Shown: piece by piece, positions 22,183 through 23,717 of the stretch
Numbering within the stretch: the stretch's first letter is position 1
Layout of the letters: the number at the start of each line of letters is the position of its first letter
Assembly: GCA_965656375.1 (NCBI GenBank)
Contig: CBFHKH010000001.1
Span: 345,319 to 409,318, forward strand
DNA: 64,000 nucleotides
Reading direction: 5' to 3'
Source of the DNA: Minisyncoccia bacterium
GTDB lineage: Bacteria; Patescibacteriota; Minisyncoccia; Phycocordibacterales; UBA9973
The notes under the pieces: generated by a model
What the model saw: only the letters and a program-made list of their open reading frames with translations
Told to the model about the DNA's origin: nothing
The model's database searches: none
Made by a program: the position numbers and the translations under genes

Positions 22183-23717
22183 AATTGAATTATTCCACGA
22201 ACAGCTTCCGCTACCCGTGCCTTGTTACGACTTATTCCCTGTCACCGAGCTTACTGTAGGCCCTCCGTATGGAGAGATTTCGAGTACTCCCGGCTCCCTT
22301 GAATTGACGGGCGGTGAGTACAAGACTTGAGAACGTATTCACCGCGGTATGTCTGACCCGCGATTACTAGTAATTCCAACTTCATGGGGTCGAGTTGCAG
22401 CCCCCAATCCGAACTGGCGCCACTTTTATAGGATTCGCTCAGGGTTACCCCGTCGCTGCCCGTTGTGGTGGCGATTGTATTATGTGTGTAGCCCAAGGTA
22501 TCAAGGGACATGCTGACCTGGCGTCATCCTCTCCTTCCTCCCCGACCGAAAGACACAATTACTATATGAGTAATTATTTCCTTTGGTCGGGGCAGTCTCG
22601 TGTGACACTTGTAACACACGACGAGGGTTGCGTTCGTTACCCCACTTAAGGGAACAATTCAAACCACGAACTGACGACGGCCATGCATCACCTGTCAACT
22701 AGTCTTGCGAGGGCCCCGGTTTCTCGGGGCTTTCACGTTGATTTCTAACCTTGGTAAGGTTCTTCGTTTATCGTCGAATTAAACCACATAATCCACTACT
22801 TGTGCAAGTCCCCGTCTATTCCTTTGAGTTTTAGCCTTGCGGCCGTACTTCCCAGGCGGATCTCTTAACGCGTTAGCTACGTCTCTCAGAGGGTCGATAC
22901 TCCGAAAGACTAGAGATCATCGTTTAGGGCGTGGACTACTGGGGTATCTAATCCCATTCGCTACCCACGCTTTCGTGCTTGAGTGTCAGATGTGTGCCAG
23001 TATAGTGCCTTCGCTTTTGGTGTTCCCCATGATATCAACGGATTTCACCCCTACACCATGAGTTCCCTATACCCCTCACACTCTCAAGTTGTGCCGTTTC
23101 GTTCGCGGATTCTAGGTTAAGCCCAGAGATTTGACAAACGACTAACACAACCACCTACGCACCCTTTACGCCCAATAATTCCGGATAACGCTCGGGGCTC
23201 TCGTATTACCGCTCCTGCTGGCACGAGATTAGGAGCCCCTTATTCATGAGGTACCGTCAATAAACTTCTTCCCTCATAAAAGATCTTTACACTCCGAAAA
23301 GCTTCATCAATCACGCGGCGTCGCTCCGTCAGACTTTCGTCCATTGCGGAAGATTCTCGACTGCAGCCACCCGTAGGTGTATGGGCCGTGTCTCAGTCCC
23401 ATCGGTGAGGGTCAGCCTCTCAGCTCCTCTACGCGTCATAGCCTTGGTAGTCCATTACACTGCCAACTAGCTGATACGTCACAGGCCTTTCCCTAAGCGA
23501 AAAACTTTACTCCGGAGAGACTATCGTGTATTAGCTCACCTTTCGGTGGGTTGTTCACGACTTAGGGGGAAGTTCCTATGTATTACTACCTCGTTCGCCA
23601 CTAACTTCAAACGACCTTTGACTTGATGTAATCGCATCTCTGGAAAAATGAAGTCCGTTCGACTTGCATGCCTTATCCACGCCGCCAGCGTTCATCCTGA
23701 GCTAGGATCAAACTCTA
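22183..23717 (-). rRNA. rrs: 16S ribosomal RNA, about 1.53 kb and apparently intron-free
   Basis: 5' AGAGTTTGATCCTAGCTCAGGATGAACG (reverse complement at 23690-23717); 3' GTCGTAACAAGG plus helix 45 (reverse complement at 22195-22235). Confidence 0.9.

Follow-up and report, generated by a model that had tools for sequence, protein, structure and literature searches.

The single 16S rRNA gene in the window (the whole 64-kb stretch of contig CBFHKH010000001.1 that was analysed) was found to lack CCUCC, the anti-Shine-Dalgarno (anti-SD) sequence, after an intact helix 45, and the loss was confirmed as a real, lineage-wide evolutionary loss in a Paceibacteria-type bacterium of the candidate phyla radiation (CPR). 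The CCUCC tail, one of the most conserved sequences of rRNA, pairs with the Shine-Dalgarno (SD) motif of the mRNA in the textbook mechanism by which bacteria initiate translation. The explanation that is considered likely as a whole is that the anti-SD was lost in this lineage, that an ancestral cis hairpin at the same site was kept, and that initiation is largely leaderless and independent of the SD.

The gene was found to be a full-length member of RF00177 (SSU_rRNA_bacteria, model positions 1-1533) with 1342.6 bits against an Rfam gathering score of 50. The first-pass annotation, made from the letters of the window, had placed the 3′ end at 22183-22235; the position was right, whereas the strand has to be corrected, the RNA being read on the minus strand. 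In the cmscan alignment the 3′ end was found to contain GUCGUAACAAGG followed by the 10-bp helix 45, CACGGGUAGC-GGAA-GCUGUUCGUG, and then by GGAAUAAUUCAAUU, which is aligned with the consensus GGAUcACCUCCUUu column for column and contains no CCUCC; the usual bacterial sequence at this site is GGAUCACCUCCUUA. The canonical 3′ tail GAUCACCUCCUUA, which is typical of RF00177 and not needed for membership, was also absent. Helix 45 was 100% paired in 69 distinct relatives among the matches listed, with compensatory changes at 3 pairs. No CCUCC(U) was found in the ~13 nt after helix 45, as in the known anti-SD-less class of 16S rRNAs, and the sequestered type of Bacteroidetes, in which CCUCC is present and occluded, does not apply to a tail from which CCUCC is absent. 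No match to GATCACCTCCTT with up to 2 mismatches was found in or past the rRNA, the sole nearby match being located inside tRNA-Lys, and the minus-strand trailer down to the terminator (~21954) contained no CCUCC, CCUC or CUCC. An rRNA intron or intervening sequence displacing the 3′ exon was rejected, no canonical terminus being present between helix 45 and the terminator. The earlier claims of a 16S 3′ end without CCUCC, of an intact helix 45 with its GGAA loop and of no anti-SD downstream are thus borne out by the alignment and the fold, and a CCUCC-containing exon that might have been joined after processing or splicing was looked for downstream and not found.

The same tail was found across related taxa, as is the case for the known anti-SD-less bacteria. 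The relatives were seen as 8-kb blocks and were collected in two scans. The first, with one genome per species of GTDB, used a 21-nt signature and gave at least 120 CPR loci; it is unbiased as to the tail because the signature is located ~110 nt upstream of it. In the second, metagenome contigs were searched with the helix 45 sequence, which gave 120 further loci with 113 unique tails. The window-type helix 45 without CCUCC was found in at least 72 GTDB species-representative loci, comprising Paceibacterota, Parcubacteria, Nomura-, Zambryski-, Taylor-, Adler-, Ryan- and Kaiserbacteria and several doubtfully labelled metagenome-assembled genomes (MAGs). The canonical GGAUCACCUCC tail was found in at least 15 GTDB loci (Magasanik-, Uhr-, Berkel- and some Peregrinibacteria) and variant pyrimidine tails, such as GGAACAUCUCCUUACCAGGGAG, in at least 21 (Peribacteria-like and others). 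Among the metagenome loci bearing the same helix 45, CCUCC was missing in 119 of 120, and the 16-nt stretch after helix 45, AATAATTCAATTTGAA, which is the window tail GAAUAAUUCAAUU minus its first G and plus the first bases of the 3′ arm of the mini-hairpin (Table 1), was the commonest variant. The sole locus with CCUCC (L210) was found to contain a Paceibacteria-type helix 45 followed by a canonical GGAUCACCUCCUUUCUAUGGAG tail. It was rejected as a transitional form: the best matches to the 3′ third of its 16S are Uhrbacteria/ABY1-type loci (81-82%), and the gene belongs to that sister group. Because L210 keeps CCUCC, the helix 45 sequence alone is no predictor of anti-SD loss. CCTCC in the 300-nt trailers of the relatives was found at shuffle level only (4 of 70 listed GTDB trailers; 11 of 111 metagenome trailers against 11 after shuffling), and a displaced 3′ exon is therefore excluded. 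As an observation on the databases, the titles of L009, L018, L021, L034 and L077 and of many binchicken MAGs ('uncultured Candidatus Saccharibacteria'), which name Planctomycetia, Gammaproteobacteria, Spiroplasmataceae, Methanosarcinales or Saccharibacteria, clash with the CPR 16S signature of these loci; every legible 3′ tail among them (those of L009 and L077 were not) was of the Parcubacteria type, and these bins are probably mislabelled or contaminated.

The window 16S was 97-100% identical to Paceibacterota MAGs over the last 176-221 nt and 83-88% identical to Nomura-, Taylor- and Zambryskibacteria loci, which places it by sequence in a Paceibacteria-type lineage (a subclade of the NCBI Parcubacteria group), Paceibacteria being the GTDB class name (PMC12641178). 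The closest relative among the matches listed (L080), from the assembly of another study, showed no difference in the final 176 nt of its 16S, and contained an identical tail and a nearly identical trailer. It is extremely improbable that the tail belongs to a pseudogene or to a minor rrs copy, or comes from faulty or chimeric assembly, with a functional CCUCC-bearing 16S elsewhere in the genome. Such a reading could draw on the fact that only 64 kb of the genome are visible, and on the 16S being unlinked from a 23S (no Rfam match to large-subunit rRNA was found anywhere in the 64-kb window), which might suggest an orphan copy. An unlinked 16S is, however, the rule in the group, no 23S being present in 48 of the 52 related loci in which 3 kb or more could be seen downstream. 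Helix 45 is intact in the full-length, high-scoring match, the species representatives and metagenome loci counted above share the tail class, and a promoter-like site, a terminator and the arms of a conserved 27-bp processing stem surround the gene. An assembly error, raised in the first-pass annotation as a possible refutation, is ruled out by the identical tail of L080 and by the tail class shared among relatives, and the check for a further rrs copy gave one small-subunit (SSU) rRNA only within the window.

At the former anti-SD site, the tail was found to form the 5′ arm of a mini-hairpin with the first nucleotides of the trailer. This arm is located at about E. coli positions 1535-1539, in the place of CCUCC. 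Of 69 unique GTDB tails among the matches listed, 67 were found to form an anchored Watson-Crick stem with 3 bp or more, and 55% one of at least 4 bp, against 13% when the 5′ and 3′ parts were exchanged between tails that differ in their arms and 10% in shuffled tails. Covariation was tested with an anchor on the invariant U44-C45 and the first downstream GA, which leaves almost no search freedom. The outer pair was found as U-A in 39, C-G in 6 and G-C in 1 of the listed tails, and the next pair as A-U in 38 and C-G in 19 with no cross-combinations; both counts exceed all permutations (0/5000). The metagenome set replicates the covariation (A-U 54, C-G 22), and the tails in which the C-G variants were found differ in context. 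In the window lineage the 5′ arm has drifted to UUCA, UCCA or CUCA with matching partners. Fixed-column pair counts in a MAFFT alignment of the tails (A1; 66% paired) were set aside in favour of the anchored analyses; they understate the mini-hairpin because MAFFT put in no gaps.

A homologous hairpin was found in CPR bacteria that have CCUCC or a variant of it. The canonical arms are CUCC-loop-GGAG, the Peribacteria arms CUCC/GGAG or UUCC/GGAA, and the Gracilibacteria-like arms GCCU/AGGC, GCCUC/GAGGC or CUCU/AGAG; in 35 canonical, Peribacteria-like and Gracilibacteria-like loci among the matches listed, 91% contained at least 4 bp against 20% after shuffling. The cis hairpins of the ABY1-, Peri-, Peregrini- and Gracilibacteria types share with that of the window the position after helix 45, a stem of 4-6 bp, the loop size and the covarying arms; they differ in that their 5′ arm is still CCUCC or CUCC, whereas that of the window lineage has drifted. 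Similar CCUCCUUUCUAAGGA ends are present in Firmicutes. Because the relatives bearing CCUCC or a variant carry the same hairpin, the helix looks ancestral in this part of the CPR and kept by compensatory change, only the CCUCC sequence having been lost. In Peribacteria- and Gracilibacteria-type loci (among them L002, L011, L037, L046, L058 and L089) the variant 'anti-SDs' CUCC, UUCC, GCCU and CUCU were found to covary with their cis complement; in these lineages, too, conservation may act on the hairpin and not on pairing with the mRNA.

By homology, the mature 16S 3′ end would be in the loop of the mini-hairpin at ~22183, where the E. coli-equivalent end (1542) and the Rfam end fall. This position bears on a different reading, in which the hairpin is retained in the mature ribosome and fills the platform pocket of the SD:anti-SD duplex as a permanent structural substitute instead of a processing signal of the precursor only. 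The 5′ arm is homologous in position to CCUCC and the 3′ arm would stand in for the SD of the mRNA, covariation shows the helix to be conserved across CPR classes, and the processing stem is far downstream in many relatives (+86 to +165 nt), all of which would suit a permanent helix. With the mature end in the loop, however, the 3′ arm would be removed, and in the relatives with CCUCC..GGAG arms a permanent helix would block the use of the SD; a permanent mimic of this kind is judged unlikely.

The genes were found to carry no enrichment of SD motifs before their starts. Starts were taken as the first ATG of long open reading frames (ORFs), and the upstream regions of internal ATGs served as controls. 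SD 4-mers were found before 3-9% of the window starts against 11-12% of controls, before 11.4% of 332 ORFs in 71 other listed CCUCC-less GTDB loci against 11.6%, and before 14.9% of 369 genes in the metagenome loci against 11.9%. The same procedure detected the SD strongly in 50 kb of E. coli K-12 (32-42% against 4%), so that the earlier claim that most genes have no SD holds for the window and for the ORFs of its relatives, and the expected consequences for translation initiation are supported by the same non-enrichment. The few GGAG-like motifs that had been pointed out are indeed present, at or below the frequency of the controls (5 of 58 against 11.8%). A lack of enriched SD motifs is a further feature of the anti-SD-less class, here with a weak residual positional signal.

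The signal that was found at the gene starts is a -10-like box, scored as TANNNT ending at -10 to -5 upstream of the ATG. It was present at 43-49% of the window starts against 8% of controls (27 of 58 genes against 8.4%), at 32% against 9% in the 71 other listed loci and at 37% against 10% in the metagenome loci, and was not enriched in E. coli (2% against 6%). Its last base was found to peak sharply at -7 in the window and the metagenome loci. The extended form TGnTAnnnT was present at 14 of 58 window starts against 1.6% of controls, and several genes contained a TTGACA-type -35 box at 16-19 nt, such as TTGACAaaaggtatatttatatgcTATAATactcatATG before the gene at 3405-3965. Of the 58 window genes, 27 were of the leaderless type, 9 adjoin or overlap the preceding gene and 2 contained an SD-like 4-mer only; in 58 of 58 curated genes the ORF was found to begin with an ATG or to have one close to its beginning, a count that is partly circular as the first ATG was picked as the start. 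With a -10 element ~6-8 nt before the start in many genes, as in leaderless genes, translation appears to proceed mainly from leaderless mRNAs, and since the box ends ~7 nt before the ATG, transcription would start at the start codon itself.

Several points weigh against this explanation. The mini-hairpin has little thermodynamic stability (-0.5 to -3.8 kcal/mol), the relatedness of the sequences is not accounted for in the covariation statistics, and a pile-up of contig ends in the 120 metagenome loci gave no signal of a mature 3′ end. A second, divergent rrs copy may formally exist, the relatives being covered as 8-kb blocks. The gene starts were called crudely, as first ATGs of long ORFs, and 20 of the 58 window genes fall in neither the leaderless nor the coupled class. 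The CPR loci that keep CCUCC (84 ORFs) were also found without overall SD enrichment, except for one Uhrbacteria locus, and they also carry the -10 signal; SD disuse for this reason seems broader than the loss of the anti-SD, and it probably came before the loss, as far as so small a sample allows. A residual SD-like signal was found as well: in the CCUCC-less genomes, 4-mers ending at -11 to -6 were present before 8.6% of genes against 5.6% of controls (p = 0.002) and SD-like 5-mers before 5.1% against 2.4% (p = 1e-4), where the E. coli values are 37.5% against 1.9% and 27.5% against 0.4%, respectively. These matches are spread over 46 of 155 related loci, often look genuine (AAGGAGG, CAAGGAG or GGAGG, 6-9 nt before the ATG), and are rare in genes that have a -10 box at the ATG (3 of 258, against 56 of 429 in genes that have none). 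The 451-aa gene of the window (12835-14190, minus strand) is among their carriers. The residual signal could be vestigial, horizontally acquired, or a purine-rich enhancer that is independent of the anti-SD.

An rRNA partner for these motifs was sought in the trailer. A displaced or cryptic anti-SD, in the form of a CCUCC-type element from a downstream exon or of the 5′ arm of trailer hairpin 2 (Table 1) if a 3′ extension were retained, could be accommodated in the ~125 nt of structured, partly conserved RNA that separate the processing stem from the Rfam 3′ end. The hairpin 2 arms are pyrimidine-rich on the 5′ side and purine-rich on the 3′ side in 125 trailers against 45 (187 trailers, p = 7e-10; for example CCCUCCUCGGAGG), anti-SD-like 4-mers precede SD-like ones in 30 cases against 12, and the residual SD-like motifs at some genes would find a partner. 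Against it stand the window trailer, which lacks even CCUC and CUCC, the shuffle-level frequency of CCTCC in trailers given above, and the presence of anti-SD-like 4-mers in only 71 of 187 trailers; the genomes bearing such an element were no richer in SD-bearing genes (odds ratio 1.14, p=0.76), on which ground a relocated anti-SD in the trailer was rejected as the partner of the SD-like motifs. The displaced element is consequently regarded as very unlikely. Also very unlikely is a new pairing code, in which the A/U-rich tail AAUAAUUCAAUU would pair with a complementary A/U-rich motif before the starts. The upstream regions are A/T-rich and the tail is fairly conserved, with its commonest variant as given above; on a check against the real 3′ tail, however, tail-complementary 5-mers were rarer before starts than in controls (9 of 58 against 27%), the conserved upstream signal is the promoter TAnnnT/TGnTAnnnT at a fixed distance and not a complement of the tail, and the tail arms covary with a cis partner instead of staying constant. 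In other taxa, moreover, no variant SD matching variant anti-SDs was found (Amin et al. 2018, PMC6107228).

Under the preferred explanation, of anti-SD loss with a conserved cis hairpin and leaderless initiation, CCUCC would be dispensable in organisms that do not rely on SD:anti-SD pairing and would be free to change because that pairing is unused. A sigma-70-type -10 box, often TGnTAnnnT, 6-8 nt before the ATG would place the first transcribed nucleotide on the start codon or right beside it, and the 5′-terminal AUG of the leaderless mRNA would be bound directly by a ribosome with initiator tRNA and IF2, which is an established route of leaderless initiation. Genes abutting or overlapping an upstream gene would be served by re-initiation or coupling. 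The helix would be kept by selection, since its arms covary, in CCUCC-bearing relatives too, and most plausibly for 16S 3′-end maturation or an assembly checkpoint; in the Paceibacteria-type lineage it would have persisted while CCUCC drifted away. The ribosomal protein bS21 contacts the SD helix. Era has been reported to recognise GAUCA together with CCUCC right after helix 45 (PMC10582724), Paceibacteria to be mostly without era with rbfA kept (PMC12641178), and bS21 to be often absent from Parcubacteria (PMC9297842). The anti-SD loss fits the reported lack of these two proteins, both of which contact the tail.

Bacteria whose 16S lacks the anti-SD were reportedly described by Lim et al. in 2012, and the examples include Chryseobacterium, Elizabethkingia, Riemerella and Blattabacterium of the Flavobacteriia, Mycoplasma, Candidatus Carsonella and Hodgkinia. 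The loss had been called unusual for bacteria in the first-pass annotation, and unusual it is, with the addition that it is already documented elsewhere: a survey found 128 taxids with anti-SD-less 16S, concentrated in some Flavobacteriia, Mycoplasma and Carsonella, which also lack SD motifs, and named no CPR taxon (Amin et al. 2018, PMC6107228). The window lineage shares with this class the 13-nt tail without CCUCC, the lack of enrichment of a matching SD and the phylogenetic clustering. It differs in belonging to the CPR, with ~190 distinct sequences sampled, and in the covarying hairpin that is kept. A-rich leaders are described for Bacteroidetes, whereas the start signal of the window is a promoter at the ATG. 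By these features the window 16S is assigned to the anti-SD-less class and adds a new large lineage to it.

Reportedly, leaderless-mRNA initiation was treated by Zheng et al. in 2011 in the context of Actinobacteria, Deinococcus and archaea. These resemble the window in the -10 box ~7 nt before the start in many genes and, as far as the partly circular first-ATG calls go, in the AUG starts; Actinobacteria and Deinococcus keep the canonical anti-SD and use the SD for leadered genes, whereas in the window the anti-SD is absent and the leaderless assignment comes from computation only. Mammalian mitochondrial SSU rRNA has no anti-SD after helix 45 and its mRNAs are largely leaderless. With helix 45 retained, no anti-SD and leaderless mRNAs, the mammalian mitoribosome is the nearest functional parallel. 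The window lineage is distinguished from it as a free-standing bacterial one with sigma-70-type promoters, and mitochondria keep the Era homologue ERAL1 whereas Paceibacteria are mostly without era (PMC12641178). Leaderless mRNAs are known from M. tuberculosis, as summarised in a later paper (Cortes et al. 2013, via PMC12641261). In Bacteroidetes, according to the account given of it in a later paper, CCUCC is kept and is occluded by bS21/bS18/bS6 (Jha et al. 2021, NAR, via PMC9723584); the likeness, as far as that account goes, is that SD-independent initiation is dominant and the 3′ tail unavailable for mRNA pairing, and the difference is that CCUCC is retained there and gone in the window lineage, where bS21 itself is often absent (PMC9297842 for Parcubacteria). 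The 16S 3′ terminus has been described as 'often not fully annotated' in CPR genomes (PMC12641178). In the literature, of which the coverage was incomplete, neither the loss of the anti-SD nor leaderless initiation was found described for Parcubacteria, Patescibacteria or the CPR, so that an earlier description is possible.

The coordinates of the rRNA region are collected in Table 1. Between the 16S and the processing stem, the trailer folds into a series of elements (z = -3.6 against shuffles). In hairpin 2 the structure is kept and the sequence varies between relatives. It is followed by the presence of the motif GUCGAU (exact GTCGAT in 44 of 71 GTDB trailers among the matches listed and in 62 of 118 metagenome trailers, at a median of +48 nt after helix 45) and by hairpin 3, in which close relatives contain an invariant CUCAAUUGA loop on a covarying stem (alignment A2: GUGUAG/CUACAC, AUGUAG/CUACAU, GUGUUG/CAACAC and GUAUAC/GUAUAC). 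The motif and hairpin 3 were found to be kept in relatives even with the 16S unlinked from the 23S. The sense-oriented AAGGAGGG that had been noted in the trailer is present; at its site the closest relatives contain AAGTTGGG, ACAAGGG, TGATGG or GAGAGG, and because they do not conserve it, it was rejected as a functional element and is put down to coincidence. The leader and trailer arms of the processing stem are 93% complementary, as in a classical pre-16S leader-trailer stem, the trailer arm being located ~125 nt beyond the Rfam 3′ end; RNA duplexfold runs of leader against trailer gave over-extended duplexes and are a rough guide only to an arm located at +86 to +165 nt in many relatives. 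A reading in which the ~125-nt structured 3′ extension is kept on the mature Paceibacteria 16S, with the mini-hairpin as a permanent cis mimic of the SD:anti-SD duplex, would cover the mini-hairpin, the pyrimidine-first hairpin 2, GUCGAU and hairpin 3 with its CUCAAUUGA loop, and is thought quite improbable. If the extension were retained, its remainder would be a new docking or regulatory surface and might account for the residual purine-rich motifs before ~13% of leadered genes.

Table 1. Features in and around the 16S rRNA gene of the window
Feature	Position	Strand	Basis and remarks
Putative 16S promoter, TTGACT-16 nt-TGnTATAAT	23957..23984	-	Read from the sequence; putative
Processing stem, leader arm	23726..23752	-	Directly adjoins the 16S 5′ end
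16S rRNA gene	22183..23723	-	RF00177 limits; sole SSU rRNA in the window, no 23S after it
Helix 45, CACGGGUAGC-GGAA-GCUGUUCGUG	22196..22219	-	cmscan alignment, fold; 10 bp, GGAA loop
3′ tail GAAUAAUUCAAUU	22183..22195	-	E. coli 1530-1542; aligned to consensus GAUcACCUCCUUu; without CCUCC
Mini-hairpin AUUCA-AUU-UGAAU	22178..22190	-	Fold; 5′ arm at the former anti-SD site
Trailer hairpin 2, UUUUAUAUCUUC-UUCG-GAAAUAUAAAA	22147..22175	-	Fold; alignment A2
GUCGAU	22134..22139	-	Trailer of the 16S; conserved, single-stranded
Trailer hairpin 3, AUUGUGUAG-CUCAAUUGA-CUACACAAU	22107..22133	-	Fold; alignment A2
Fourth trailer hairpin	22089-22106	-	Fold
AAGGAGGG	22066..22073	-	Trailer; SD-like, sense orientation
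Processing stem, trailer arm	22030..22056	-	27-nt inverted repeat, conserved in relatives
Putative intrinsic-terminator-like hairpin and U tract, ACACCCGAAAGGGUGUUUUUGUUUUUU	21954..21986	-	Read from the sequence; partly conserved in relatives
RNase P RNA	20462-20872	-	RF00010, 110.6 bits

Downstream of the 16S terminator, an ORF without Pfam matches (21168-21776) was found, followed by the RNase P RNA. Between the terminator and this ORF there is a near-perfect palindrome, GAAGUGGUUUGCCACAGUUUUCA ... UGAAAACUGUGGCAAACUUC, at 21840-21904; the Rfam matches of the trailer region on both strands (mir-5681, FasX and others), which are far below their gathering scores, were rejected as spurious and come from this palindrome. 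Just upstream of tRNA-Lys and the 16S, obg was found in the region 24201-25551 (minus strand), and a gene of the '23S rRNA intervening sequence protein' family overlaps its start. Elsewhere in the window, the genes of a short IF2 of 504 aa and, immediately after it, of RbfA were found at 54260-56108 (plus strand), and an RNase J gene at 60630-62621 (plus strand). The 16S itself was found to contain lineage-specific oddities on the minus strand (regions 23195-23225, 22545-22600 and ~23610-23650): the sequence of the 515F primer site is GUGCCAGCAGGAGCGGUAA, for which GCUCC upstream compensates, helix 28 is ACUUG/CAAGU and not GCCCG/CGGGC, the 1409-1491 pair is A-U, and insertions are present around helix 6, where they amount to ~38 nt, and near 22545-22600.

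Codon usage of the window was found to exclude UGA. In 53 ORFs of 100 aa or more that do not overlap one another, the stops were TAA in 39, TAG in 14 and TGA in 0, and no in-frame TGA was present in ~17,800 codons against 1,144 out-of-frame TGAs. When TGA was read as sense, the window genes neither merged nor materially lengthened. TGA makes up ~25% of the stops in the other listed Paceibacteria-type loci (83 of 332), and 0 of 11 in the closest listed relatives (L080, L031 and L053). This suggests that UGA serves neither as stop nor as sense codon in the window genome, with a possible loss of RF2 or an unassigned codon.

Anti-SD-less bacteria are already known, and the CPR lineage is new to that list as far as was found. 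If the sampled pattern holds, a large and species-rich branch of the CPR, comprising Nomura-, Zambryski-, Taylor-, Adler-, Kaiser- and Ryanbacteria-type organisms, would be without CCUCC and mainly leaderless, and it would be the largest anti-SD-less bacterial clade of which we are aware. The covariation suggests that it is a cis hairpin, and not mRNA pairing, that selection maintains at the tail site in these organisms, and the CPR, from CCUCC through the CUCC and UUCC variants to none, would offer a natural series for the abandonment of SD-led initiation. In practice, gene callers that score the SD will misplace starts in CCUCC-less CPR genomes, in which 16S 3′ ends are also mis-annotated (PMC12641178), and heterologous expression of CPR genes, or expression in CPR hosts, would need other signals.

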